From a virus (taxonomy: Duplodnaviria > Caudoviricetes): DNA of 48,790 nt. Location: IMG/VR virus record IMGVR_UViG_3300022187_000048, positions 1-48,790 of that record; one strand, given 5' to 3'. The notes below the pieces were generated by a model. It worked only from the letters and a program-made list of their open reading frames with translations, had not been told where the DNA came from and ran no database searches. Position 1 is the stretch's first letter, and each line of letters starts with the position of its first letter. The position numbers and the translations under genes were made by a program. This document shows positions 1,609 through 48,504 of this stretch, one piece after another.

Positions 1609-3476
1609 GCATCTGGCTTAATAAGAGCAGAGCCAACAAGACAGCGAAGATACCATACGCCTACGTGGCATCTGAGGACGACCCACTAGTCCTAGTACCA
1701 GATGAGGCGAAGGCAGTACTCGTAGAAGAGGCTCTAGACTATTTGGAAGAGGGACACTCCAGTCGAAAGACTGCTGAGTGGCTGACTTCTAAGACTGGCG
1801 ATAAGATATCGCACCAAGGTCTAATACACATTTGGAAGGACCGTAGAGGGCCAGACAGTCCGACACCTTCTAAACGCCTGAAGGAACTGGCGAAGCAGAA
1901 TAGGAAGCGTAAGCCTAAGACTACGGAAGAGAAGAGACTAGCAGCGGCGAAGCGAAAGCAGACTGACGCTAAACGCCTACTAACTATTGCCAAGAAACGC
2001 CTCGAAGGATTACAACCAGAAGAACAATTAGATACTTCCAATCTAGATTTTTCTGTGATAGAATCTGAGAAGAAGAAGCAAGAAGTAATATTTGCTCCTA
2101 ATGAGGGACCACAGACAGAGTTCCTCGCGGCTTCAGAGAGAGAAGTGCTATATGGCGGGGCCGCTGGAGGTGGCAAGTCGTATGGACTACTCGCAGACCC
2201 TATGCGGTACTTCTCAAACCCTAATTTTAATGGCCTAATACTACGTAGAACTAATGACGAATTACGTGAACTTATTTGGAAAAGCCAAGAGCTATATCCT
2301 AGAGCTTTTCAAGGAGCTAAGTGGGCTGAGAAAAAGTCTCAGTGGACGTTTCCATCAGGCGCAAAACTGTGGCTCACGTATCTGGAAAGAGATCAAGACG
2401 TTCTACGCTACCAAGGTCAAGCGTTCTCGTATGTAGCATTCGACGAACTGACCCAGTATCCCACCCCCTTCGCGTGGAATTATATGAGGTCTCGACTGCG
2501 TACTACCGACCCCACCCTGCCCATCTACATGAGGGCGACTACTAACCCCGGAGGAAGTGGTCACGGCTGGGTGAAGCGGATGTTTATAGACCCCGCGCCA
2601 GCGAATACGAAGTTCGTGGCAAAGGATTTAGACTCTGGAGATGACTTAGTCTTTCCAGAGGGGCATGAGAAGGCTGGTGAGCCGCTGTTCTACAGGCGAT
2701 TTATACCAGCTAGCCTGAAAGATAACCCATATCTCATGGAAGGTGGGCAGTACGAGGCCAACCTACTCTCTCTCCCTGAGATGCAACGTAGACAATTACT
2801 AGAGGGAGACTGGGCAGTTGCAGATGGAGCGGCATTTCCTGAGTTTAGACAGGCGACACACGTTGTCGAACCTTATGACATTCCCCCAGATTGGCGGCGG
2901 TTTCGGTCCTGTGACTTTGGATATAGTTCTTATAGTGCTGTTCACTGGTTTGCAATTGATCCAAACTACGACACCCTAGTCTGCTACAGGGAATTATACC
3001 TCAGTAAGCACACTGGACGCGACTTGGCTAAGGCAGTCCTAGAGGCAGAGGGTCCAGAACGCATCGACTACGGAGTATTGGACAGTAGTTGCTGGCACAA
3101 TCGAGGTCAAATCGGCCCGTCTATAGCAGAAGAGATGATTTCTATGGGCTGTAGGTGGCGACCAAGCGACAGGACTAACGGCGCACGTATAGCAGGTAAG
3201 AACAGACTGCACGAAGTGCTAAAAGTAGACGAGGAAACAGGCGTAGCTGGCATAGTATTCTTCAATACCTGCCGACAAATCATAGCCGACCTGCCCGTCA
3301 TACCATCTGATCCGCGTGGCACAGACGACATCGACCCCAGATACGCCTCAGATCACGCATACGACAGCGTCAGATACGCAGTAATGAGCAGACCACGCGC
3401 TAGATCGCCCTTCGACTGGGGTCAAGGCATTCCACAACAGCGTTGGCAACCCGCTGACGCAACATTTGGGTACTAA
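1605..3476 (+). CDS. terL: Terminase large subunit with N-terminal HTH-like extension
   Basis: Walker A YGGAAGGGKS, Walker B FDE, motif III ATTNPGG, nuclease DFG and DHAYDSVRY. Confidence 0.95.
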   Translation: MSIWLNKSRANKTAKIPYAYVASEDDPLVLVPDEAKAVLVEEALDYLEEGHSSRKTAEWLTSKTGDKISHQGLIHIWKDRRGPDSPTPSKRLKELAKQNRKRKPKTTEEKRLAAAKRKQTDAKRLLTIAKKRLEGLQPEEQLDTSNLDFSVIESEKKKQEVIFAPNEGPQTEFLAASEREVLYGGAAGGGKSYGLLADPMRYFSNPNFNGLILRRTNDELRELIWKSQELYPRAFQGAKWAEKKSQWTFPSGAKLWLTYLERDQDVLRYQGQAFSYVAFDELTQYPTPFAWNYMRSRLRTTDPTLPIYMRATTNPGGSGHGWVKRMFIDPAPANTKFVAKDLDSGDDLVFPEGHEKAGEPLFYRRFIPASLKDNPYLMEGGQYEANLLSLPEMQRRQLLEGDWAVADGAAFPEFRQATHVVEPYDIPPDWRRFRSCDFGYSSYSAVHWFAIDPNYDTLVCYRELYLSKHTGRDLAKAVLEAEGPERIDYGVLDSSCWHNRGQIGPSIAEEMISMGCRWRPSDRTNGARIAGKNRLHEVLKVDEETGVAGIVFFNTCRQIIADLPVIPSDPRGTDDIDPRYASDHAYDSVRYAVMSRPRARSPFDWGQGIPQQRWQPADATFGY

Positions 3477-31482: not shown

Positions 31483-34400
31483 ATGGCTGATGTAAATCCA
31501 TTTGGCGATGAAGCGGTAGATGAAAATCCGTTTGGTGACGAGCCTGTAGAAGAGCAACAGACTTCTGGAGAGTTAGACCTAGCCAAAATCCAACAGCGGC
31601 GTAACTCTGGAGAGAGCGACGAAGCTATTTTCAATGACATCGTCAGTCAGGCTGGTACTGCCTTTAACATGGATGGTAAGCCATTCGACTTGGCCCCAGC
31701 TATTCAAGATGGTGTCCCGCCTACTGCCCTACTAGACTTCATTATGTCTGGTAATACTATTGATACTAGCATTGATAGCGGCGTTAAGGCTGGTGTTAAG
31801 GGTGTTGGTACTGCAGCTACAAACCTTCTTGGCCTACCCGTCGATTTAGTTAACATGGGGTTAACGTCTGGTGAGAGTTTATTCCGACAGGGAGTAAACA
31901 AGCTGGCTAGCATTAATGCTCCCGAAGGCGTGGACGATCCCAACTCCCCTAATTATGACCCAGAGTTTTATCTAAGCACAGACCCAAAAGACTTTGTAGT
32001 AGGAGGTAATCCCGCGCCTCTGGGCAGTAGTCAAAATATAAGAAATATAGGTAATGCGGTTCTTGGCGAGAATACCTACGTCACTAGGGAGAATGTGCCA
32101 GAAGAATACCGCGCACAGTTTGGCGTTAGTCGTGTAGTCACTGAAAACCTTGTTCCAGCCTTTGCTATTTTAAAGACTGCTAAGGCAGGTATTGGCCTTA
32201 CTAATCCACTTATAAAAGAAGCTGCACAGAACCCTACTCGCTTTCGTAATATTGAAGGCGGTGCCACAGCGGGTGCGGCTGGACTGACTGCGTTTATTGA
32301 GAAGGCTGGTCTGGGAGATAACCCTTGGGCGCAAATGGGAGCAGAGTTCTTAGGTGCGTTAGTAGGCGGTAATGCTGCCTCTGCCACTTCTAGAGTTGGT
32401 GGAATTGCAGACGCTACCAGTAAGACCCTAGAAGACTTAGTCGCTGGCTTCAGCGATGGGGCCGCTCGTAAGGGTGCCGTCAATGACATACTACTAGCTG
32501 CACAGCAACAGCGTAAGATACTCCTAGATCAAGCTAAGGCGGCTACTGACGCGGGGGATACTACCCTAGCAGATCGTCTTACTGAGGCGGCTGATGCACA
32601 CACTCCAGAGCGTATTATCCAAGACCTAGAGACCTCTCTTGCGCTGGGAGATGCCAGCCCAGTAGACGGAGTAAACCTACCCGCTGGTACTCTTACCGAT
32701 AACCCTACACTAGTAGCTATACAGAACGGACTAATTAGTGGTAGCTCTGATAAAGGTATAAACTTTTCCGCTGCAGTAGCCGAAGAGGTTAATACAGCAC
32801 TTTCCCAAATTTTGGCTACATCTGAGCGTCTTGCCAGAGCAGGTAACCAGTTCGCAGCCGATACTCTACGTGAACGCTACTTCCAAAACATATTAGACAC
32901 ACGTATCAAATTGGCACAAGACGAGGCAAATGCTAGGTTAACAAATCTATCACCTGATATGCGCCAGACTGAGGCTTCTAAAGTCGCCCAGCAAACTCTA
33001 TTCGAGGCTAGAGCAAATATCATTGAAATGGAAGATTACTTGTATGGACGTATTGATGACGGCCTACAAGTAGATGCCTCTAATGTAGATCGAACAATCT
33101 CAGAGATGCGCAGGACGCGGCTTCTAGACGGCGAGACTATCGCTGGCGGTGGGCAACTAGACGCTGCAATTAATAATTTTGCCATGAAGGCCCGTGAGGG
33201 TACGTTATCAGTGGCAGAAGTTCGTAGATTTAGGTCTCGTATGCTGGAAGCTGCCAGAGAAGCGGCTGATAAGTCTGAGTTTACCAGAGCGGGTATCTTT
33301 GACGAGCTTGCCAATGCTTCCGTAGACTCACTAAATGCTATCCCCTACGAAATTGGTGGTGAAGCTGTAGAAACTGCACGTAAATTTAGCAGTCTAAAGC
33401 ATGAACGCTTTACTCGCTACTTCAATATGGATGCCCTTAGTACCGTAGGTACAGGTGGCACTGCTATGCGTCCTGAACAAGTACTAGAAAACGCTCTAGC
33501 TGGTACTCCAATTAATCGCGCACAGAACTTATCTGAAATGCGTGGAGCTACAGAGTTTTCAGACACTATGGGGCCACGGGTCAATGACCTAAAGGAGCGG
33601 GAACTTCAGGCAGAGTTCGATAAGTTTGCTAGGGGTATTGGCGCGGAGCCTAATGACATTACCATGCCAGCGGAGCTTACTGCCCCAAGCACCACCCTAC
33701 CCTCTACGAAGACTACGCCCGATCCTCAGAGAATGAGTCCAACTGATCGTCCTGCAGAGGGTGAACTAAGTCAGGCACAACAGGCGGCTGAACTGCTATT
33801 CCGATTTGCTAATAAGATGGAAGCTGATGGTAGAATGGATTTGGCAGAAGAGGCCAGACGCAGGGCGCAAGCATTCGACCAGTATCGTGGTCCACAGGGA
33901 GAAGAATACTTCGATCCCAAAGCTCCCTCACCAGAAGCTGAACCAGTAGACGACTTCCAGCTAAATGAGGGCGGTGATACTACGTCAGTAGCATTCCCTG
34001 ATGACACTACTCCTGTAGAGCTTGCCCCTCGTATGTCTAATGCTCAGGAACAGTTCTTACGAGGTGCGGTCACTAGACTGCGTAATACAGACGGAACTAT
34101 TGACACAGCTAAACTAGAGAACTTTATGTCTGCTACTGAGAATGCAGACGCGCTAGAGGGTTTCCCTAATTTTAGAGCGGAACTCACTAGCCTACTAGAT
34201 GCGCAGAGAACTGCAGACGAAATATTTAAGCAGTTTAGCGCGATAGCAGAGACTGGTAAGTTACCAGAAGCTATAGGTAAGGTACTCAACTCCAACAAGC
34301 CCGTAGACGATTACGTTAAGTTAGCTAACGAGGCTATGGGTGATCAGAATGCGCTCAGAGACTTGCGCATGGCTACCATCGACACACTATTTGAGGGTGC

Positions 34401-35100
34401 TAGAGATGCTAATGATAACCCAGACTTCTTCAAGCTAACTACTGAGCTTACTCGACCACTGAGTGGACGGGCCGACGACCTCAGCATCTTAGAGATTATG
34501 GAGCAGCAAGGCGTAATTGGCTCTGAAGACATCAGCAACATTGGTCAGCTAATTCAAGAGGGCTTACGTATTCAACGTAGCACAATGACCCCTGCCCAGT
34601 TTAATGAAGTAGTCAAGCCAGCCAGTGACATAGTCAGTAACACAGCCCGTATCTTCGGTGCTAACTTCGGTGCTATGTTTGGTATGGGCGAAGGCTCACA
34701 GCTACAGGCGGCGGCTATCGGTTCGGCTGCATTCAAGAAACTCGTAGCTGGACTGCCAATGGGGAACAAACTGGAGCAGATGAAAATCCTTATGCTCCAA
34801 CCAAGAGTACTGAAAGGTGCCATCCAAGATAATCCAGATATTAGACGCGGTGCCTTGGACAGTGTCAAAGAGTTTATGATCAAGTATGGTTCTGAGTTTA
34901 AAGGTCTCAGCAAGACGCAGAAAGCTGGTAAACTCGCCAAGGACGTAACTGTAGGAGCAGCTACGGCGACAGGCAGAGGAATTGTGAATAGAGCATCGGA
35001 AGCACCTATAGCAACGTCCTCTGCCTTGAGCGAAGCAACTCAACAGGATGAACGTCCTACGGTGACAGTGGATGATCAGATGATGGATTTGTTTCCTTAA
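31483..35100 (+). CDS. Large internal virion (ejection) protein
   Basis: 1205 aa, mostly helical, NPFGDE repeats at the N-terminus, GLPVDLVN motif; last gene of the structural arm. Confidence 0.7.
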   Translation: MADVNPFGDEAVDENPFGDEPVEEQQTSGELDLAKIQQRRNSGESDEAIFNDIVSQAGTAFNMDGKPFDLAPAIQDGVPPTALLDFIMSGNTIDTSIDSGVKAGVKGVGTAATNLLGLPVDLVNMGLTSGESLFRQGVNKLASINAPEGVDDPNSPNYDPEFYLSTDPKDFVVGGNPAPLGSSQNIRNIGNAVLGENTYVTRENVPEEYRAQFGVSRVVTENLVPAFAILKTAKAGIGLTNPLIKEAAQNPTRFRNIEGGATAGAAGLTAFIEKAGLGDNPWAQMGAEFLGALVGGNAASATSRVGGIADATSKTLEDLVAGFSDGAARKGAVNDILLAAQQQRKILLDQAKAATDAGDTTLADRLTEAADAHTPERIIQDLETSLALGDASPVDGVNLPAGTLTDNPTLVAIQNGLISGSSDKGINFSAAVAEEVNTALSQILATSERLARAGNQFAADTLRERYFQNILDTRIKLAQDEANARLTNLSPDMRQTEASKVAQQTLFEARANIIEMEDYLYGRIDDGLQVDASNVDRTISEMRRTRLLDGETIAGGGQLDAAINNFAMKAREGTLSVAEVRRFRSRMLEAAREAADKSEFTRAGIFDELANASVDSLNAIPYEIGGEAVETARKFSSLKHERFTRYFNMDALSTVGTGGTAMRPEQVLENALAGTPINRAQNLSEMRGATEFSDTMGPRVNDLKERELQAEFDKFARGIGAEPNDITMPAELTAPSTTLPSTKTTPDPQRMSPTDRPAEGELSQAQQAAELLFRFANKMEADGRMDLAEEARRRAQAFDQYRGPQGEEYFDPKAPSPEAEPVDDFQLNEGGDTTSVAFPDDTTPVELAPRMSNAQEQFLRGAVTRLRNTDGTIDTAKLENFMSATENADALEGFPNFRAELTSLLDAQRTADEIFKQFSAIAETGKLPEAIGKVLNSNKPVDDYVKLANEAMGDQNALRDLRMATIDTLFEGARDANDNPDFFKLTTELTRPLSGRADDLSILEIMEQQGVIGSEDISNIGQLIQEGLRIQRSTMTPAQFNEVVKPASDIVSNTARIFGANFGAMFGMGEGSQLQAAAIGSAAFKKLVAGLPMGNKLEQMKILMLQPRVLKGAIQDNPDIRRGALDSVKEFMIKYGSEFKGLSKTQKAGKLAKDVTVGAATATGRGIVNRASEAPIATSSALSEATQQDERPTVTVDDQMMDLFP

Positions 35101-35174
35101 ATAAAGAAACCCCCACCATCTCTGGCAGGGGTCTCAACCAACGAACAAGGTGGACCAATCTCGACCTCATTCGC
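35101..35174 (-). ncRNA. Candidate small antisense regulatory RNA (~72 nt, two hairpins)
   Basis: Promoter TTGACC-N18-TAAAAT upstream; 5' stem GCGAAUGAGG/CCUUGUUCGU; terminator with GAGA tetraloop and U-tail; G-U pairs work only on this strand; complementary to five translation-initiation regions. Confidence 0.7.
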
Positions 35175-35178
35175 TAGT

Positions 35179-35208
35179 ATTTTAACAAAAAATAAGCCCA
35201 TAGGTCAA
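35179..35208 (-). promoter_or_regulatory. Sigma70-type promoter of the candidate sRNA
   Basis: TTGACC (35208-35203), 18-nt spacer, TAAAAT (35184-35179). Confidence 0.6.
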
Positions 35209-35230
35209 GCGATCTGTGGGCTATTTTATT
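35187..35230. terminator. Probable bidirectional terminator between the two arms
   Basis: 12-bp stem AGCCCATAGGTC/GATCTGTGGGCT flanked by an A-tract and a T-rich tract. Confidence 0.7.
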
Positions 35231-35232
35231 GC

Positions 35233-36975
35233 TTATTCACATTTTCTCAGGCCAGTGGCTACGTCAAAATAACACGCCCCACCCTCTTCAATGAAGTTGT
35301 CTTCTTCAGTCTGTGGCTCTTCGGCAATATCCTCTGAAGCGGCTGCATTCAGGATACCATACCGCTTACCTGAAGCTCTGAAAGTTGTACATCCAGACGA
35401 CCCACCTTCGTAGGCTTTCATGTAGACATCCTTGAACTCTTCCCAAGAGATGTTGTCTCCTACGTTGCAGGTCTTAGAACAGGCACTGTCTACATAGCGA
35501 GAGGCTACGTTAAGAACTTTAACGTGGTCAAACACTGATAGCTCGTCGGCTGTCTTGCCCTTCACGCCAAACACACGATAGCCATAATCTTCAACCCGCT
35601 CTACTTTAGGGCCGTCGAAGGTCTGGATAGTTCTATCGTAGTAATGTGAGAAGACTGGTTCAATCCCAGAGGATACGTTGTCGGCTGACAGGCTGATAGT
35701 TCCTGTCGGAGCAACAGAAAGAAGATGACTGTTACGAATACCGTGCTGGCTAATGAGATCACGAATATCGTGAGGCAGAGTAGTAGCAAACTCAGAGCCA
35801 AGATATGCCTGAGTAAATAGAGGAAACGGACCCTTCTCAATAGCCAATTCCACAGAAGTACGATACGCCACATTCCTAATAACCCCCATAATCTCTTCTA
35901 GGGTACGTAGGAAAGGCTCACTGCCGTACTCAAAGCCCAATGCCTCAATGGCATTAGCTACGCCAGTAACTCCCAGCCCCATACGGCGTTTGCTTTTAGC
36001 TTCCTGCTCTTGCTCTGGCAGCGGATATGTTGCACGGTCTACTACATTGTCCATTGCACGTACTACGTGAGGGATGTCGTTACGTAGCTGGTTCATATTG
36101 AACACATACTTGCCGTCATGCTCTACTATGTATTTAGCCAAATTAAATGAGCCTAGTAGACACGCACCGTTTGGCGGTAGAGGTTGCTCACCGCATGGGT
36201 TTGTAGCGGCAATCTTCTCACAGTAGTGTAGGTTGTTCTTGCGATTAATACGGTCAATAAACAGGATTCCCGGTTCTGCCCAGTCCCACGTACTACGTAG
36301 AATGTCATCCCACAATGCACGTGCAGAAACTGTCTTATAGACACGGCCTTCAAAGACTAGATCAAAGTCAGCATCCTCTTTGACTGCCTTCATAAACGCA
36401 TCTGTCACGCCAACTGAGATGTTAAACTGCGTAAGCTCAGTGCTGTTGTTCTTTGCGCGAATAAACTGCTCAATATCTGGATGGTCTACACGTAGGACAC
36501 CCATCTGTGCGCCTCTACGGTGTCCTGCAGAGCTAATTGTCTTACAGATTGCGTCGAAGATGCCCATAAAGCTCATTGGGCCACTGGAGCGGCTGTCTAG
36601 GCTGCGTATGAGTGCGCCACGTGGACGTAGAGTACTGAAGTCATAGCCAATACCGCCACCAAGCTGCATAGTCTTGGCTGCGTTACGTGCGGCTTGCATG
36701 ATACCTTCCATACTGTCCTCGATAGTCATAGAAACGAAGCAGTTATATGGAGTTACGCGGCGGGGTGCGCCCATAGCAGACTGTACTCGACCCGCTGGCA
36801 GGAAACGCTGGTTATATAGAATATTTCGAAAGTTATTGAAATGAGATTCATTATCTTTCAGTGCTTCGGCTACACGTGTCATAGCCTCGCGGAAAGTTTC
36901 CCCCTCAGACCTGTACTTCTGGGCATGAATTTCCTCAGAAATTGATAGGGTTGGTCCGTATTCGTTTTTTATCAT
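35233..36975 (-). CDS. nrdJ: Class II (adenosylcobalamin-dependent) ribonucleotide reductase
   Basis: FLPAGR, NCFV, GGGIG, TNPCGE, SVAPTGTIS, C-terminal Cys pair; no beta-subunit gene in window; GAGGAG RBS before ATG 36975. Confidence 0.85.
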   Translation of the reverse strand: MIKNEYGPTLSISEEIHAQKYRSEGETFREAMTRVAEALKDNESHFNNFRNILYNQRFLPAGRVQSAMGAPRRVTPYNCFVSMTIEDSMEGIMQAARNAAKTMQLGGGIGYDFSTLRPRGALIRSLDSRSSGPMSFMGIFDAICKTISSAGHRRGAQMGVLRVDHPDIEQFIRAKNNSTELTQFNISVGVTDAFMKAVKEDADFDLVFEGRVYKTVSARALWDDILRSTWDWAEPGILFIDRINRKNNLHYCEKIAATNPCGEQPLPPNGACLLGSFNLAKYIVEHDGKYVFNMNQLRNDIPHVVRAMDNVVDRATYPLPEQEQEAKSKRRMGLGVTGVANAIEALGFEYGSEPFLRTLEEIMGVIRNVAYRTSVELAIEKGPFPLFTQAYLGSEFATTLPHDIRDLISQHGIRNSHLLSVAPTGTISLSADNVSSGIEPVFSHYYDRTIQTFDGPKVERVEDYGYRVFGVKGKTADELSVFDHVKVLNVASRYVDSACSKTCNVGDNISWEEFKDVYMKAYEGGSSGCTTFRASGKRYGILNAAASEDIAEEPQTEEDNFIEEGGACYFDVATGLRKCE

Positions 36976-36986
36976 TGATTTGCTCC

Positions 36987-37427
36987 TCAAACTAAATCTT
37001 TTAAGTCAGGGGCTGCGTAGTGTGGCCCCTTTAGTACCTTTCCGTCTTCTCGATAGATTGGTTGCCCATCGCTACCCAACTTGCTCATATTGGATGCGTG
37101 GACACGACGAACTGCTTCGTCTAAATCCCAGCCAAATGTGGCTGCGAAACCGTATGTTACGTAGACAAGATCAGCTAATTCCTTCAGTAGGTTTTCAGGT
37201 GTATTTGCATCTGCTACTTCCTGAAATTCCTCATCTAGAAGATTGAAGCGCAGCATATCCTTGTCGCTACCCTTCTCCCAAGTATGGCCCGTAGATTGTC
37301 CGTAAATACGAGCAAACTGCTCCACCATATTCAGCGGTGTCTTGTTTAGGTAAGTATTTGAATCTCTTATTAATTCATTGTCGTGGTCATAATACTCAAA
37401 TGCCACGATATCATCCTTTGAAATCAT
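36987..37427 (-). CDS. MazG-like nucleotide pyrophosphohydrolase
   Basis: LLDEEFQE...LKELADLVYV, VHASNMSK, REDGKVLKGP. Confidence 0.88.
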   Translation of the reverse strand: MISKDDIVAFEYYDHDNELIRDSNTYLNKTPLNMVEQFARIYGQSTGHTWEKGSDKDMLRFNLLDEEFQEVADANTPENLLKELADLVYVTYGFAATFGWDLDEAVRRVHASNMSKLGSDGQPIYREDGKVLKGPHYAAPDLKDLV

Positions 37428-38358: not shown

Positions 38359-39119
38359 TTAGGGGGTTCTAAGAGGCTATATTCGCCCCACCCTGTGCCA
38401 AAGTCCTCTTTGTCGATTGCTTCCTTAATAATCTCCAAAGTCTTGTGCATTTGCTCCGTAGCCCTGACCAACAACTCAGGGCTGACTACGTGCATATGAC
38501 TTACGTAGGGAGCAGACTTCTCCACCGCTATGAAGTGGAAGCGATCCACCTCGATACCGCCAAGATTACATACGTAAAGATAGAAGGCTGCTTGGATTGG
38601 ATACGAATATTTCCAGCACTCTGAGGCGAAACCTTTTGGACTTGCATCCTGTGTGGTCTTAATATCGTAGACAATTCCCTCAGAGGGTATGTACAGGTCA
38701 GGTCTCGTCTTGAGTATCAGACCTGTGTTTTCACACTCGGCAAAGATACTGACCTCGTTTACTCGATCCTTGTGTCTCAGGGCATCGTGGCAGACCTTAT
38801 TCTTTAAAGTCTCTGTCGCCATACGATTAGCCACGTGGTACTCTACTTCCGTGAGTAGTACCTGATCTTGTTCTAGGTCTTCCTGTAATTCCTTAAAGCC
38901 CTTGGAGTTGCGGGTCTTTGGTCCCTTTACTACTAGGTCACGGTCTTCCTCTAGCAATAGAGCGTGGACCGCCGTACCCAAGTCGAATGCCGCAGATGTC
39001 TTCCGCTTCTCACCTTTCCAGTGAGCCACTGACTTTTTAAATACTGTCTTTACCGCCGAAGAGGATATACCACCTTGTTGGTGGTACACCTCATTAGACA
39101 TATTCTCTACAACGCCCAT
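38349..39119 (-). CDS. PD-(D/E)XK exonuclease (RecE/exonuclease VIII-like, DUF3799)
   Basis: SNEVYH, ISSS, GTAVHALLLE, KTRPD, DIKTT, Y.IQAAFY, FIAVEK. Confidence 0.88.
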   Translation of the reverse strand: MGVVENMSNEVYHQQGGISSSAVKTVFKKSVAHWKGEKRKTSAAFDLGTAVHALLLEEDRDLVVKGPKTRNSKGFKELQEDLEQDQVLLTEVEYHVANRMATETLKNKVCHDALRHKDRVNEVSIFAECENTGLILKTRPDLYIPSEGIVYDIKTTQDASPKGFASECWKYSYPIQAAFYLYVCNLGGIEVDRFHFIAVEKSAPYVSHMHVVSPELLVRATEQMHKTLEIIKEAIDKEDFGTGWGEYSLLEPPKWL

Positions 39120-42139: not shown

Positions 42140-42285
42140 AAGTCTGGCTCCCCATGCTCGTCAAAGGTAGGCCGTCTATATTCTTGCACTCTCGCGGCTA
42201 CCTCTTGTGGTTTTTTCTCAGCCATCACACCAAATTGTCGTACCTGTAGTTCAATGTGTGGCGGTAATCTGGCTTCACACTTCAT
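42136..42285 (-). CDS. 49-aa hypothetical protein (MKCEARLPPHIELQVRQFGV...FDEHGEPDF)
   Basis: Read directly; overlaps the helicase stop and the polymerase TTG start, filling the gap. Confidence 0.65.
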   Translation of the reverse strand: MKCEARLPPHIELQVRQFGVMAEKKPQEVAARVQEYRRPTFDEHGEPDF

Positions 42286-43492
42286 AGCGCGAAGTCTTAT
42301 GGTCTAGCTGACACATGACTGTGCCATGCCACCCTGAGATTTTATTCTTCATCACCGTAATCCAGCGCGAAGGATCGTCAGGGTTTTCCTTGTCATCCAT
42401 CTTACCTAAGCCTATTAAGATGTCGCTCTCGGCTACCTTACCCACCTTACTACCTTCCAGCATTGTTGGCGTGAGGCGTGTCTTACCTTCAGCTTCTGCA
42501 GATGCTTGTGAAAGACCTATTAAGGCCACGTTATGCTTCTTGGCTAATTCACGTAGGCGGTAGTACAATTCTCTCAGGCGTTCATGCCCAGAGTTAAATG
42601 TCTGCGTGAGTGCGATCTTGTCTGCCATATCCACGATTACGACATCAAATTTTTGTTGGCTCAGGAAGGCATCGAGTTGCTGTATATCCCAGCCCTGACT
42701 ATCTGCGAAGATAAGACGGTCCCTAATAGCTGCATACCGTGCGGCTGCGGCCTGTGGCTCGAAGTTCATCTCCTCTTTGGTCATACCAGTGAACGCTTGC
42801 ATGGCACGTAGCTTAGTGCGCTTACCCACCTCTTCGTTGGCTATGTAACCAACCTTGGCACCTTGCTGGCAGAAGCCGTCTGGGGCAGCGCATAGGCTAA
42901 TAGCAAATGCCGTCTTGCCTACATTAGAGTATGCCGCAATGACACCGAACTCTCCGCGCCCAATGCCATACACATTTCTACTCAGGGTCTCGATGTTAAA
43001 CTTAAATCTATTGTCGTCTGATACAGTAGCTAATAGCTCGTAGATATCGTCTGTGACTATGTAGTCATTAAAGTTATCTGGTAGGTATCCATCTGATACA
43101 CGGTCCAAAAGAGTATTCAGCTTGTCCATTGCAGAGGCATCACCCTCAGACATTGATATACCTAGCTGGGCAATGTCTAAACCAATGTGCTGCCGCCAGA
43201 GTGTCTCGATGACATCACTAGCTACGGCACTGTCTATGTCATCAGCATTGGAAATAGAATTTACTAGGTCTTCAATCTCAGCCGACCACGAACCCGTCGA
43301 TGTAGGATTTTTAGACTTCCAGTAAGTAAATAGTTCAAGAGGCGTAATGTCCTTCTCAAACTTATCGTGCATCGAGATAATTGTCTCGAATACATCTTTC
43401 ATAGTCTCGTCGAACAGTGATGCTCGAAGTTTTGCCTTATTTTCCTCATAGAATGAGTGGTTAAGGCAGCTTTTAAGAAGTGATTGGTCCAT
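42275..43492 (-). CDS. SF4 (DnaB/T7 gp4-like) DNA helicase
   Basis: Walker A AYSNVGKT, ANEE, VVIVD, LSQAS, GSK, KNKISG. Confidence 0.92.
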   Translation of the reverse strand: MDQSLLKSCLNHSFYEENKAKLRASLFDETMKDVFETIISMHDKFEKDITPLELFTYWKSKNPTSTGSWSAEIEDLVNSISNADDIDSAVASDVIETLWRQHIGLDIAQLGISMSEGDASAMDKLNTLLDRVSDGYLPDNFNDYIVTDDIYELLATVSDDNRFKFNIETLSRNVYGIGRGEFGVIAAYSNVGKTAFAISLCAAPDGFCQQGAKVGYIANEEVGKRTKLRAMQAFTGMTKEEMNFEPQAAAARYAAIRDRLIFADSQGWDIQQLDAFLSQQKFDVVIVDMADKIALTQTFNSGHERLRELYYRLRELAKKHNVALIGLSQASAEAEGKTRLTPTMLEGSKVGKVAESDILIGLGKMDDKENPDDPSRWITVMKNKISGWHGTVMCQLDHKTSRYEV

Positions 43493-43543
43493 TCTTCGCT
43501 ATCCATTAACAATTAATAGAGTGCTATAGTAGACCAATTAGCG

Positions 43544-44058: not shown

Positions 44059-44814
44059 TTACCGTAGTAAATTGTTTATCTGTTCTGTAGTGAGCCATTT
44101 AAGGTCTTTCTCAGTTAGTCGCAGCTTTAGGGTCTTATCTTTACTTCTGATTGTATTGAGTGCCTTAGTGTTCGCGTCTTTGTCAAGAACTAAATACCTA
44201 TTAGTGTAACAACTAATTGACTGCTTTATTGTGGAAGTCAAGTTTGTACCTAGCATTGCCACACCTACGTAGCCGTCTAGTCTACTTACACTACAGGCTG
44301 ATGGTATGTCTTCTACGAGTACGGCATCAGTTCCCTCACCTACGTGTACACCGCCTTCGATGACACCATAAGTCATCCACTTAGGTCCATAGGGTTTCAG
44401 GCATCTACCCACTGCACCTCTATCTGCGTAGAACATTACTCGGTCTTCGGCTGGTGCGTAGCGTACATCTATCCATCCGTTCTGGTAAGCCTCTAGACTA
44501 TTCACAGACTTCAGGAAGTCGATTGCTGGTTTATGGTTATCTACTGAAGTAGTTATCTCGGGTAATGGTTTAACCTTAGCAGTCGGCTTAGATACTTTTG
44601 CTAGATAGTCTTTGGAAGACTGAAGAGAACGTCTACCTTGGTATATGCCTCTTCCATTACAGCTTGCTCTATAACAGAACCACTTTAGTTGACCATCTAT
44701 TTTAGAGACTGCTAGCTTCTTATAACCACCACAGAAAGGGCATTGGATTACTATAGTATCCCCCTCTCTGATATTAATAGTCTTTACTATTTCTAACTGC
44801 TCTAAGTAGGTCAT
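44059..44814 (-). CDS. DNA primase (Zn-binding plus TOPRIM)
   Basis: CPFC...CYRASC zinc ribbon, PKW, VLVED, LGT, LDKDA, KDLK. Confidence 0.9.
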   Translation of the reverse strand: MTYLEQLEIVKTINIREGDTIVIQCPFCGGYKKLAVSKIDGQLKWFCYRASCNGRGIYQGRRSLQSSKDYLAKVSKPTAKVKPLPEITTSVDNHKPAIDFLKSVNSLEAYQNGWIDVRYAPAEDRVMFYADRGAVGRCLKPYGPKWMTYGVIEGGVHVGEGTDAVLVEDIPSACSVSRLDGYVGVAMLGTNLTSTIKQSISCYTNRYLVLDKDANTKALNTIRSKDKTLKLRLTEKDLKWLTTEQINNLLR

Positions 44815-44857
44815 CTCTAGTCCGTTGGTTATACTGCCCCTTCGCAGGGACAGCGTC

Positions 44858-44885
44858 AGCTTATCGTCAAAAACAATTTAGTCAA
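44858..44885 (-). promoter_or_regulatory. Putative promoter of primase operon
   Basis: TTGACT-N16-TAAGCT, with an operator copy abutting the -35. Confidence 0.5.
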
Positions 44886-44970
44886 CAACTAATTAAGTGC
44901 TATATTAAAACACTTAAAGTTAACAGGTATTAATGTAAGTATATCATAAGCCATTGATTTTAAACATCAT

Positions 44971-45015
44971 CTGTTAATCAATTGGTCGTAGGTTCGATCC
45001 CTACCGCCGGAGCCA
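44971..45015 (+). mobile_element. attP core: 3' half of tRNA-Asn(GTT)
   Basis: CTGTTAA anticodon loop, TCAAT, T-arm GTAGG-TTCGATC-CCTAC, acceptor strand ending GCCA; 5' half absent; AT-rich flanks; integrase ~0.9 kb away. Confidence 0.85.
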
Positions 45016-45453: not shown

Positions 45454-45667
45454 TTTCACCTCGCAGTACTGGTCTGATTGATCTAGACATGACACCTGTC
45501 TCCAAGCACCACATATTAACGTCACCATCGGCGTTAAAATACTCAGGCATATTCTCATTAGTGCGTATTGCTATCTGACAGGCTTCTGAACTCGGCAGAA
45601 GTATATACGTCTGTATATCCCTGCCTTGGATTGCATACTCTACGTAGAGAGCGAAGAAGTATTCCAT
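45446..45667 (-). CDS. Hypothetical protein, 73 aa
   Basis: AAGGGG RBS; two Cys; SIRPVLR C-terminus. Confidence 0.65.
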   Translation of the reverse strand: MEYFFALYVEYAIQGRDIQTYILLPSSEACQIAIRTNENMPEYFNADGDVNMWCLETGVMSRSIRPVLRGENG

Positions 45668-45954
45668 GTCGCCCCCTTTCGTATGTTATCTTTTTCATCA
45701 CGATTAGCCTCTTCACGCTCCTTGGCCCTCTGACGCTCTTCAGGGGTCATCTGGTTAATGTGCTTGTTAACCCAGTTTCTACGTATGTCGTCGCGGTCAC
45801 ACTCCTTGTGTCTGTCGTTGTGGATCATCTCCCGCGCAAACGTGTGGCTGATACCAAAGTGTCGTGCCGCCTGAGCAATGCTGATGAAGTCCTGTCCAAA
45901 TAGACGGCAAGGTCTGCCGCGCTGAATTACTTTTACTGTTCTATGAAATCCCAT
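45640..45954 (-). CDS. HTH (NUMOD1-like) DNA-binding protein
   Basis: GQDFISIAQAARHFGIS; coupled to the integrase stop (TAATG). Confidence 0.65.
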   Translation of the reverse strand: MGFHRTVKVIQRGRPCRLFGQDFISIAQAARHFGISHTFAREMIHNDRHKECDRDDIRRNWVNKHINQMTPEERQRAKEREEANRDEKDNIRKGATWNTSSLST

Positions 45955-47078
45955 TAAATTAAGCCTCGTTTCTGATTAGCCATTGTACTCTCTGTCTCAC
46001 CCTCTAGGGCGTAGATCACTAACATCTGCGGGTTCTTGTGGCCTGTCAGGGCCATCAACTGTCGGTCAGTACACCCTGCCCTACTCGCGTGAGTAGCTCC
46101 TGTGCGTCGAAGGTCAGCCATCCACAGTTTGGTATATCGCTGGCTACCGTCATCATTTAACTGACCTACTAGTGGAACCTCTGGCAGTCCGTAGCTATCG
46201 GCAGCGGCTCTAAAGAACTTATTGCATCGATCCTGACTGTAGGGTCTCCCAGTATTCTCGTATGCGAATATGTAATCATCAGAGTTACGGTGCTGGTGTA
46301 AGTGCAGACGCTGCTTAACAGAGTTAGTTACCTTGATAGACATCTGCTTGCCTGTCTTCTTCTGAGTGAAGTGAGACACGCCTGTCTTGCCGTCGATATT
46401 ACCCCACCGCATGGTCCTTACGTCAACAGGACGCTGGCAGAACTCGTAGCACATGACCAGCATTGTACCCATACTGTGGTAGCCCATGTCGTCACAGTGC
46501 TGCACCATGCCCCATATATGTTCTTCGGGCCACAGAACCTGTCTGTCTGGCAGCTTGGGTAGCTTGACCAAGGCAAAGGGGTTAGACTTTACCTTCCCTG
46601 AGCGTAGACCCTCGTTCCAGACTAGCTTGAGAACCTTGAAAGTGTGGTTGGCTTTGTGTGTACTTACGTCAGACTGTATGTGTAGCCACAGTTTTTGTGC
46701 GTACTCGTAGTCAACGTCTGACACATTCATTTTAGCAAATGCTGTGTTAGATACGCAGACAGGCAGAACGTGCCGTAGGTGACCCTCATACGATCTCTTA
46801 GTAGCAGCAGCCTTGATGTTACCGTAGGCCATAGACGACTTGTAGTGATTGACCAGAGCCTCGACAGAGCGGTTGTCTACGTAGATGTCTTCGTGGTTAC
46901 CAGCCTTCCAAGCCTCAAACTTACGCTTCCACTCGTAGCCTCTGGCGTTGGCCTCTTGCGGGGTGGTGTAGGTCTCCCGACTGATATCGGGAAACGCCTT
47001 CTTTAATTCAGGAGTAGGCCGTAGGTCAAAGACCCTAGTGTTGCCTCTCATGCGTGGTCTTACGTAGGGAGCCTTCAT
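45954..47078 (-). CDS. int: Tyrosine integrase
   Basis: CQRPVD (R), QKKTG (K), DLRRT, LTGH, IY (Tyr); SAM-like core-binding region. Confidence 0.92.
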   Translation of the reverse strand: MKAPYVRPRMRGNTRVFDLRPTPELKKAFPDISRETYTTPQEANARGYEWKRKFEAWKAGNHEDIYVDNRSVEALVNHYKSSMAYGNIKAAATKRSYEGHLRHVLPVCVSNTAFAKMNVSDVDYEYAQKLWLHIQSDVSTHKANHTFKVLKLVWNEGLRSGKVKSNPFALVKLPKLPDRQVLWPEEHIWGMVQHCDDMGYHSMGTMLVMCYEFCQRPVDVRTMRWGNIDGKTGVSHFTQKKTGKQMSIKVTNSVKQRLHLHQHRNSDDYIFAYENTGRPYSQDRCNKFFRAAADSYGLPEVPLVGQLNDDGSQRYTKLWMADLRRTGATHASRAGCTDRQLMALTGHKNPQMLVIYALEGETESTMANQKRGLI

Positions 47079-47443
47079 GCCGCCTTCTCCACGTGTACAC
47101 GCACAAAGTGGTTGCGTGGGGTTAGCTTCACGACATTGTCCTTGCCGCGCACTTCTACGTAGGTAAGCCCAGCCTCATGCTTAAAGGTGATGGTGTCGCC
47201 CACTGAAACGTGCTTCTTGATGTCCTTGATGGACATGAGCTTGTCTCCGCGAGGTCTACGGTACAAACGTATCTCCGTGGCAGTATCGTCCTCGAACACG
47301 GCTGGGACAGTAGTCTTTTCGCCGTTCTCTAGGTCGCAAAAGGTCGTAGTTAGATACTTTTTGGCGAAGTCTACCACCGACTTATTAGCGTCAATAATGG
47401 ACTTGTTCAGCATACGCTGAGTGATAACGATCTTGGCTTCCAT
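47075..47443 (-). CDS. Hypothetical protein, possible B3/EcoRII-N-like pseudobarrel domain
   Basis: ITQRMLNKSIIDA...LYRRPRGD..SIKDIKK.VSVGD.I. Confidence 0.6.
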   Translation of the reverse strand: MEAKIVITQRMLNKSIIDANKSVVDFAKKYLTTTFCDLENGEKTTVPAVFEDDTATEIRLYRRPRGDKLMSIKDIKKHVSVGDTITFKHEAGLTYVEVRGKDNVVKLTPRNHFVRVHVEKAA

Positions 47444-47607
47444 TACTTACGCACCTCCCCCAAGTTGGCTACGATAGCCTTGTAGATACTGATCTCCGTG
47501 CGGTTAAGTCCGACGAAGCAAGTCGGGTACTTACGTCCATACTCCATGACCTTACGAGCATTTGGTATAGTCATGTCTTCGAGGTAGTTATTTATTAGCT
47601 TCAACAT
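47443..47607 (-). CDS. 54-aa hypothetical protein, first gene of integrase operon
   Basis: AAAGGA RBS before ATG 47607; TAATG coupling to the next gene. Confidence 0.7.
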   Translation of the reverse strand: MLKLINNYLEDMTIPNARKVMEYGRKYPTCFVGLNRTEISIYKAIVANLGEVRK

Positions 47608-47639
47608 AGATTGGTCCTTTCTAATTGTTGATGTACAGC

Positions 47640-47712: not shown

Positions 47713-47983
47713 AATTTCCCTGCGCGAACAAGTGTATGCTTACTTACGTAATTGGACCGTAGTTATGATCTCCCAGCCGTATGCCTCTGGCTCACTGTCT
47801 GTAGCCATGTGTATTGCCGTATCCGATTCTGGTAGGTAAACAACACTATAGTCTTTGCCCTCTTTCTGCGCAGCTTTGGTAGCATTATAGAGCGCATCTT
47901 TAATGTCAGTTATTAGATTAGTCATATTTTATTGGCTCCTTTGCTGTTTTGATTTGAAAAAAATTTCCCTGCGCGAACAAGTG
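47713..47983. repeat. 22-bp perfect direct repeat flanking a small gene
   Basis: AATTTCCCTGCGCGAACAAGTG at 47713-47734 and 47962-47983. Confidence 0.9.
47740..47925 (-). CDS. 61-aa hypothetical protein
   Basis: AAGGAG RBS, own terminator, bracketed by direct repeats. Confidence 0.7.
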   Translation of the reverse strand: MTNLITDIKDALYNATKAAQKEGKDYSVVYLPESDTAIHMATDSEPEAYGWEIITTVQLRK

Positions 47984-48124
47984 AATACTTGTCTATAGCA
48001 GTCTAAATGTGAGATCAACATAAAATTTACCTGTCTCCTGCCGCTCGTCGCAGTTTTTTGCTCGTCGCAGATAATGCAGATTTCCTGAGTGTTTTTCTAT
48101 GGAATTTGTTACATCATTTAATTG

Positions 48125-48153: not shown

Positions 48154-48206
48154 TCGAACAGTCGCCACCAGTGCGGCTCGATAACAACCAACGAACAGGA
48201 GTTCAC

Positions 48207-48416
48207 ATGACATTAATAGCAAACTACCCGTCCAAAAAAGTGATGAAAGAAAACATCGGTCAGCGTCTGAAGTATATTGAGACCTCATTATTCGGCCCTG
48301 AGTATCAGGCCAATGGGACACTGACAGTATGCAACCGCCCACATATCACAGGCCAAGGCCGTGAGTGGTTCGGACAAGTCACTATGAAGGACGGCAAAAT
48401 CACGGCGGTAAAGTGA
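48207..48416 (+). CDS. 69-aa conserved hypothetical early protein
   Basis: AGGAG RBS before ATG 48207; YPSKK..KE.IG..L.YIETSLFGPEY motif. Confidence 0.8.
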   Translation: MTLIANYPSKKVMKENIGQRLKYIETSLFGPEYQANGTLTVCNRPHITGQGREWFGQVTMKDGKITAVK

Positions 48417-48487: not shown

Positions 48488-48504
48488 GTATAAGGACCAA
48501 TCAA

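Follow-up and report, generated by a model that had tools for sequence, protein, structure and literature searches.

The window analysed here is the whole stretch of 48,790 nucleotides, a virus record that is 91% complete and from which part of the early operon is absent. It represents an HMO-2011-type roseophage of subgroup III near Roseobacter phage CRP-738, with which its helicase shares 96.8% identity; the corresponding values are 54% for CRP-212, 53% for CRP-235 and 44% for CRP-3. The window codes for a PolA with CXXCXGXG motifs, a helicase, a primase, a ribonucleotide reductase (RNR) and a tyrosine integrase. The CXXCXGXG inserts in PolA, the position of the integrase upstream of the replication module and the CRP-3 group as nearest relatives agree with subgroup III as characterized in the available text of PMC9038755 and PMC6918029. 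Judging from the four cultured members and two hosts mentioned in the accessible part of PMC9038755, CRP-738, CRP-212 and CRP-235 probably belong to the same subgroup. The virion arm on the plus strand stops at 35100 and the replication arm on the minus strand at 35233, and the 132-bp gap between them holds the locus of a predicted small RNA (Table 1).

Table 1. The predicted RNA gene, its surroundings and its putative target sites in the window (pairing energies in kcal/mol).
Feature	Position	Strand	Remark
1205-aa last virion-arm gene, convergent on the RNA	31483..35100	+	
Intrinsic terminator of the RNA, probably also of the replication arm	35098..35135	-	
Predicted small RNA, about 74-75 nt	35101..35174	-	start placed from the -10 box
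Seed B, lineage-specific: 3' strand of the stem and open linker	35135..35147	-	antisense to the region upstream of the RBS
Stem-loop 1	35143..35172	-	3' strand conceals most of seed B
Seed A: loop with UUGGUC	35151..35161	-	antisense to GACCAA adjoining start codons
-10 box TAAAAT	35179..35184	-	
Terminator-like hairpin of the virion (late) arm	35195..35230	+	
-35 box TTGACC	35203..35208	-	within the terminator hairpin of the late arm (loop and arm)
Ribonucleotide reductase, last replication-arm gene	35233..36990	-	
DNA polymerase leader, possible further target	42140..42169	-	G-U-rich pairing, -24.4
Helicase start (ORF 42275-43492)	43482..43502	-	10-nt exact match, -24.9
Primase leader (ORF 44059-44814)	44820..44831	-	target in the window's lineage, -22.8
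tRNA-Asn 3' half ending in CCA, between integrase operon and primase	44971..45015	+	candidate attP core
Tyrosine integrase	45954..47078	-	own start unmatched by the RNA, -16.3
RBS of 54-aa first integrase-operon gene (47443-47607)	47608..47617	-	from sequence match and pairing energy
Leader of 69-aa early gene (48207-48416)	48185..48197	+	13-nt exact match, -22.5
RBS of DUF932-like early gene (48505 to window end)	48494..48502	+	match; DUF932 via homologues

The two boxes, separated by 18 nt, agree with the promoter consensus at 10 of 12 positions and form the best of the promoter-like sites between 33.5 and 37 kb, of which there are four, the number expected by chance. The RNA folds into two hairpins at -38.8 kcal/mol (z -5.5), a value reached by none of 200 shuffles, and the fold of the opposite strand is 14 kcal worse. 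Its terminator consists of 13 pairs (35135-35106), a GAGA loop and a U tail. With an own promoter, an intrinsic terminator and no ORF, the locus displays the features of the sRNA class at the consensus level only, and the position of the promoter directly upstream suggests that the RNA is a primary transcript. Four of 22 metatranscriptome runs, covered as low-depth contigs that convey neither strand, ends nor level, spoke neither for nor against a discrete transcript. The loop with seed A is open in the fold; most of seed B is taken up by stem 1, which leaves its last 4-7 nt accessible. A previous sequence-only reading of this DNA had proposed the promoter, the 5' hairpin followed by a terminator and the preference for the minus strand, all of which stand. 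The GNRA cap that it assigned to the terminator is present in the window but is not kept in relatives, and its second pairing element, seed B, does have the described matches but is largely hidden in stem 1. Rfam gave no match at E<=1 in the window; the 18 sub-threshold matches obtained at E<=10 in 211 nt were driven by the terminator and included no C4 family, so that no Rfam family matches the RNA.

The complete unit of -35 and -10 boxes, hairpin with UUGGUC loop and terminator is found at the arm junction of the cultured phages CRP-738, CRP-212, CRP-235 and CRP-3 and of many IMG/VR contigs. Searched with a profile made from 14 copies, 59 of 64 redundant junction-spanning loci gave a match at E<=1; the five unmatched loci comprise the diverged copy of L223/G007, three loci with a different promoter-hairpin RNA and L270, which has a terminator only. 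At E<=0.05, a covariance model gave one full-length match per carrier genome, missing G007, L255, L259 and L261. No match was obtained at this threshold in the first 50 kb of CRP-1, CRP-2, CRP-345, CRP-207 and HMO-2011 or in the junction stretches of CRP-603 and HTVC033P; the RNA is absent from the searched stretches of these six subgroup I phages and HTVC033P, and the subgroup I junction consists of a bidirectional terminator only. Each carrier genome has one copy, at the common junction. Among 37 distinct elements, the -35 sequence TTGAC occurs in 36 (a count to which the design of the search itself contributed), TAnnnT is the best -10 hexamer at a spacing of 17-19 nt in 30, the loop reads TTGGTC in 31, GTGGTC in five and TTGGTG in one, and a late-strand U tail, visible as an A-run, follows in 36; a stem of at least six pairs is present in all of them. 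In each of 13 RNAs tested, the RNA strand folds better than its complement by 7-15 kcal and contains 3-7 G-U pairs. Stem 1 was missed by RNAalifold on a MAFFT alignment because its registers differ between lineages, and was therefore counted per sequence and on 12 related class-A sequences, in which its nine pairs are formed in 100% of cells with three pairs changed on both sides. Overall, 97.6% of cells pair and five pairs are changed on both sides in this set, a covariation score that none of 500 shuffles reached and that kinship inflates. The promoter and the fold seen in the window are thus kept across its relatives.

Several junctions deviate from this scheme. L255, L259, L261 and L266 contain a different promoter-hairpin-terminator RNA with CTAACCA.C in a loop of the last hairpin, followed in L259 and L266 by a tRNA gene. 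In G014-type phages (L310:17290-17350, L306:11150-11210), a second hairpin with a TTGGTC loop closely precedes the main element, and longer RNAs have an additional hairpin either between the two seeds (L049:18478-18626) or 5' of stem 1 (L294:12437-12562, G008). Loci collected on the basis of RNR stem mostly from other phages or layouts. Pattern matches in L078, L083, L084, L086 and L089 were rejected as copies of the RNA, one looking like chance and the others being start motifs in reverse.

The five seed matches listed by the sequence-only reading, at the helicase, the first integrase-operon gene, the DUF932-like gene, the 69-aa early gene and the primase, were all recovered in place. Outside the RNA locus, GGACCAATC occurs three times, always at a start, and CAACCAACGAACA once. 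The assertion that all matches lie at translation starts is correct for the k-mers that had been chosen, but does not extend to all exact matches of at least 9 nt to the 27-nt loop-to-linker region, 4 of 11 of which fall at starts in the window; with a minimum of 10 nt this applies to 3 of 4. Given that starts occupy 2.2% of positions, the enrichment there that had been expected is borne out (p 7e-5, with none of 100 shuffles reaching four). In a look-elsewhere control, 5 of 31,289 tiles of 27 nt from the window matched four starts, two of them representing the RNA and three belonging to two coding loci. Since these coding loci score equally high, the window alone is suggestive and not decisive. 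The DUF932 label holds via homologues, the profile being sub-threshold in that of CRP-738 and above threshold in those of CRP-3 and CRP-235. A further 10-nt exact match to the RNA at 39070-39079 on the minus strand (-20.5 kcal/mol) lies just inside the coding region of the exonuclease, a possible extra target. CRP-738 has no annotation for the 54-aa gene that opens the integrase operon (L002:9501-9665, plus strand); gp65 has been called across it on the opposite strand.

The comparison between lineages carries more weight. The middle part of the RNA varies by lineage, always mirroring the leader repeated before that lineage's own early genes: the RNA of CRP-212 mirrors TTCTAACT..TGACCAA, that of CRP-235 TAAACTTGAAA..TGACCAAA and that of CRP-3 ATCTAACTT..TGACCAA. 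The RNAs of the four cultured phages, which grow on two cultured hosts, fall into three seed types and have predicted targets. In 11 of 12 genomes the five best starts gave a better mean pairing energy than dinucleotide shuffles did, with z between -2.7 and -7.3 and no more than 1 of 60 shuffles as good. The exception is G004 (z -0.3, 24 of 60 shuffles as good), whose variant seed finds a 12-nt match before its own DUF932-like gene, 33-44 nt upstream and outside the scored window. Two RNAs from outside the training alignment, G014/L310 and G007, both passed with none of 100 shuffles as good, their start lists having been seen before the region was set by a common anchor rule. Overall, 13 of 14 RNAs beat their shuffles on their own genome. 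G014 has exact matches of 12-14 nt at four starts, and the change of the G007 loop to GUGGUC is accompanied by GACCAC at its own starts.

In a matrix of RNAs against 20 genomes, 7 of 9 seed classes paired best with their own class and the comparison of self with cross pairing was block-diagonal; classes F (G008) and G (L228), both partial genomes, were not best on their own genome. The gene calls behind these numbers are rough, and the helicase start of the window was misplaced in the matrix and in the shuffle test, the true start being used for the per-gene energies. Exact-match enrichment reached p<0.005 in 8 of 13 genomes, was marginal in L228 (p 0.019) and was not significant in G003, G004, G005 and G008; these p-values overstate independence because the genomes are related. 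The lineage-specific leader match is absent in subgroup I genomes. Differences between targets are often A-to-G or C-to-U and keep G-U pairing. Codons 2-3 of the helicase are biased to the matching form (CAA in 32 of 32, against 52% elsewhere), an indication that is weak because of kinship and 5' codon bias. The seeds change with the start regions of each lineage, and the sequences argue for a short, imperfect and conserved pairing with several unlinked mRNA starts.

The main targets in most genomes are genes of the early divergent operons, namely DUF932, DUF2786-like and DUF2958 genes and small ORFs. When the five best starts of 13 genomes were pooled, 57 of 65 were located in the early or replication-start zone, which compares with 196 of 693 remaining genes; the zones were drawn after the results had been seen, G008 and L228 were omitted and the genomes are not independent. 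In 10 of 15 genomes the pairing energy at the helicase is -20 kcal or lower, and the own RNA ranks first there in 7 of 15; by these predictions the helicase is the most constant target. The proposed pairing with the primase leader holds in the window, but the own RNA ranks first at the primase in only 2 of 15 genomes. The integrase itself is an inconsistent target: its start is unmatched in the window, and the own RNA came first in 2 of 11 genomes, the window not among them. At the polymerase the own RNA was first in 3 of 14 genomes, and at the capsid gene, taken as a control, it was first in 2 and among the top three in 5 of 9, with weak energies of -10 to -16. Several early starts of CRP-3, CRP-212 and CRP-235 are apparently annotated too far upstream. 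The early operons of CRP-212 (L177:3396-3461 and 2636-2711, minus strand) and CRP-3 (L179:2621-2692 and 1970-2045, minus strand) also contain four matches to type II hammerhead ribozymes (RF02276), of which two exceed the gathering score and two fall short of it; each lies just upstream of an RNA-matched start. Self-cleavage by these hammerheads could cut the early mRNA into units starting at the target sites.

Because the RNA mirrors the starts of early and replication genes and differs in step with them between lineages, one RNA likely silences this gene set, and we regard a trans-acting antisense RNA that represses translation of the early genes and the helicase as highly probable. The core of the sequence-only reading, a trans-encoded multi-target antisense RNA, is thus strongly supported by the conserved promoter and fold and by the covariation of seeds and targets, but without primase and integrase as consistent targets. 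Host RNA polymerase would transcribe the RNA of approximately 74 nt from its host-type promoter, and the open UUGGUC loop would pair first with GACCAA beside the AUG. Stem 1 would then open and allow seed B to zip onto, and upstream of, the Shine-Dalgarno sequence, so that the ribosome would be kept off several mRNAs whose genes lie on both strands at a distance of 8-13 kb. Because the terminator of the late arm is placed past the RNA gene, sharing sequence with its -35 box, late transcripts are predicted to be antisense to the whole RNA and would neutralize it once lysis is under way. The mRNA of the replication arm probably ends at the terminator of the RNA itself. Both the overlap of the late-arm terminator with the -35 box and the wiring of the RNA terminator are conserved in relatives.

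Two readings of the locus would dispense with antisense control by the minus strand. If the arm junction merely harboured two overlapping convergent terminators, the likeness to leaders would result from repeat homogenization or RBS composition; a junction of this type needs terminators, that of subgroup I has just a bidirectional one, early leaders are repeats of one another, and two coding loci score equally high in the window alone. Termination would require neither stem covariation and spaced promoter boxes nor a third hairpin whose loop is nearly fixed. The match is moreover lineage-specific and absent in subgroup I, and, as inspected in the window and three cultured relatives, the mirrored copy lacks the AUG that comes after most leader copies. 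We consider this reading very improbable. Equally improbable is a functional molecule on the plus strand, in which the 3' UTR of the late arm would act as a decoy copy of the early leader for a leader-binding protein: the plus strand does resemble the early start consensus and the site lies within the predicted late 3' UTR, but promoter boxes, G-U pairs and terminator all indicate the minus strand in every one of the 13 RNAs, and target changes that keep G-U pairing fit RNA pairing rather than protein recognition.

Other alternatives accept the pairing and dispute its effect. A duplex over the Shine-Dalgarno sequence and the AUG normally blocks initiation, and the predicted duplexes cover both, which argues against stimulation of translation or processing. 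Host mRNAs with similar starts as the principal targets would not account for seeds that follow the phage leaders, nor for CRP-212, CRP-235 and CRP-3 sharing one host and differing in seeds. In favour of either variant, start-associated repeats elsewhere have no known sign of effect in the accessible text of PMC3203893; nevertheless, there is very little chance that one of them applies. A lytic-cycle timer or negative feedback that uses the same antisense mechanism deserves more attention, and we see it as a possible, although not the favoured, explanation. The RNA would then arise from its promoter and from the 3' end of the replication-arm mRNA, switching off early host-takeover genes and capping the helicase. 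This would suit the location of the RNA at the end of the replication arm and the majority of early genes among the targets. Read-through into the RNA is plausible too, since the upstream hairpin has A-C mismatches on the replication strand and no U tail in most relatives. On the other hand, the most constant target is the helicase, the RNA would be neutralized by late transcripts just when shut-off is wanted, and the divergence of seeds between lineages would be left unexplained.

That divergence resembles the immunity specificity of P1/P7 C4 and by this analogy favours a role of the antisense RNA in lysogeny, in favour of which we also counted the constant targeting of the helicase. An integrase is encoded by the window, by the four cultured relatives and by seven of nine genome records searched, the two others being fragments. 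The attP-like tRNA-Asn half in the window, which also counts for lysogeny, is 82% identical to annotated tRNA-Asn genes and 96% to CRP-738; no tRNA model matched it and ARAGORN found no genes. According to the available text of PMC6918029, the RNA carrier CRP-3 integrates at tRNA-Met, and no integration was detected for CRP-1 or CRP-2, two phages without the RNA. No repressor is named for CRP-3 in the accessible text of the cited literature, and none of the small proteins searched (46 with PHROGs, 30 with Pfam) belongs to a repressor family; for the 68-aa and the 61-aa protein, the ESM Atlas returned nothing but unnamed viral clusters. The earlier remark that no CI is visible is thus in line with the profile searches, but the incomplete window also holds operator-like repeats and a weak HTH gene, so that a protein repressor is conceivable. 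Subgroup I phages have integrases without the RNA; therefore, integrase and RNA are not tied. A scan of GTDB genomes for prophages of the RNA-carrying group yielded one short contig and no prophage. Taken together, we lean slightly towards an antisense RNA that would keep a prophage dormant and confer immunity to close relatives. With four cultured phages, two hosts and three seed types, lysogeny control and cross-immunity are directly testable. Less probable, as we see it, is the further step that in these temperate marine phages the RNA is a master immunity repressor replacing a protein repressor, with translation of the early regulon and the helicase silenced, co-evolving seeds defining immunity groups and the late antisense 3' UTR locking the switch towards lysis.

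Further elements were noted in the same region. The 104-aa gene following the integrase (45640-45954, minus strand) has sub-threshold HTH/NUMOD1 matches and is a possible excisionase or regulator. A 29-nt direct repeat (93%) at 47713-47741 and 47962-47990 flanks a 61-aa ORF (47740-47925), and short repeats are found on both sides of gp01 in CRP-235 and CRP-3; these are possible operator or excision sites. A 33-nt repeat with a TATAGCACT core lies upstream of helicase and primase (43508-43540 and 44884-44916) and is a candidate for a promoter or operator shared by both genes.

No description of the RNA was found in the literature searched, supplements and most subscription journals lying outside the search. 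Comparative sequence evidence strongly supports a real and conserved family, undescribed in that literature, that would exert trans-antisense control. Among known systems the P4 CI RNA is an immunity factor that acts via two pairing sites; it arises by processing of the transcript under its control and brings about premature termination. The roseophage RNA would share the two-site pairing but is a separate gene predicted to be aimed at dispersed translation starts. A close likeness, as far as the available text of PMC5320573 and PMC8198154 describes it, is C4 of P1/P7, a phage-encoded RNA of ~77 nt with one pairing element that occludes the RBS and one for specificity, in which small seed changes define immunity groups and which promotes lysogeny. 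The near-fixed loop facing GACCAA and the lineage-specific second seed would correspond to these two elements, a correspondence that is so far a prediction for the roseophage RNA. The C4 analogy drawn by the sequence-only reading therefore extends to two elements, RBS occlusion and specificity but not to membership in the family, from which the RNA departs in the Rfam model, in the three stem-loops and in the location within its own operon. In the C4 literature available to us, C4 has a' and b' in the loops of three stem-loops, lies within the c4-icd-ant operon that it controls, is cut from the transcript by RNase P and works beside C1. In contrast, the roseophage RNA has one hairpin and a terminator with the second seed in stem and linker, sits between convergent RNR and virion genes at 8-13 kb from its predicted targets in divergent operons, and has its own predicted promoter.

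SviR of the Vibrio cholerae PLE (bioRxiv 10.1101/2022.04.08.487710) is likewise an sRNA of a mobile element that acts in trans on several targets and reduces the translation of phage genes. It differs in being a satellite RNA directed at the helper phage and at its own operons, and a shared start motif or covariation between lineages is unmentioned in the available text. P22 sar, lambda OOP and aQ, BTP1 STnc6030 and Phi24B 24B_1 control own genes, lysogeny or superinfection (PMC12197685). As presented in the accessible text of this source, they act on one gene each and mostly in cis, and none shuts down early and replication genes as a group. Known phage antisense RNAs mostly address one gene beside a protein repressor, whereas the roseophage RNA is apparently aimed at a dispersed regulon, with a target code rewritten lineage by lineage that amounts to unusually clear natural covariation.

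Tandem RBS and ATG units like the class-A start motif were seen near the contig ends of L083, L084 and L089, which belong to another phage, and may be an assembly artefact. Repetition of a motif at the starts of non-structural genes is otherwise known from the start-associated sequences (SAS) of Cluster K mycobacteriophages, for which, in the accessible text of PMC3203893, an RNA or protein partner was left possible, one inverted copy was noted in four K1 phages and, differing from the present case, no partner was identified. The inverted SAS copy of Anaya (L334:29871-29883, minus strand) lies in a structured intergenic region of 385 bp and is paired in the predicted fold, and by this model the region is a candidate for an anti-leader-type RNA; no inverted copy was found in the half of the Pixie genome examined. 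The roseophage RNA offers a way of understanding start-associated repeats that are unexplained in other phages. If it does act as a master immunity repressor, it would serve as type example for a broader class of phage 'anti-leader' RNAs by which such motifs would be explained.
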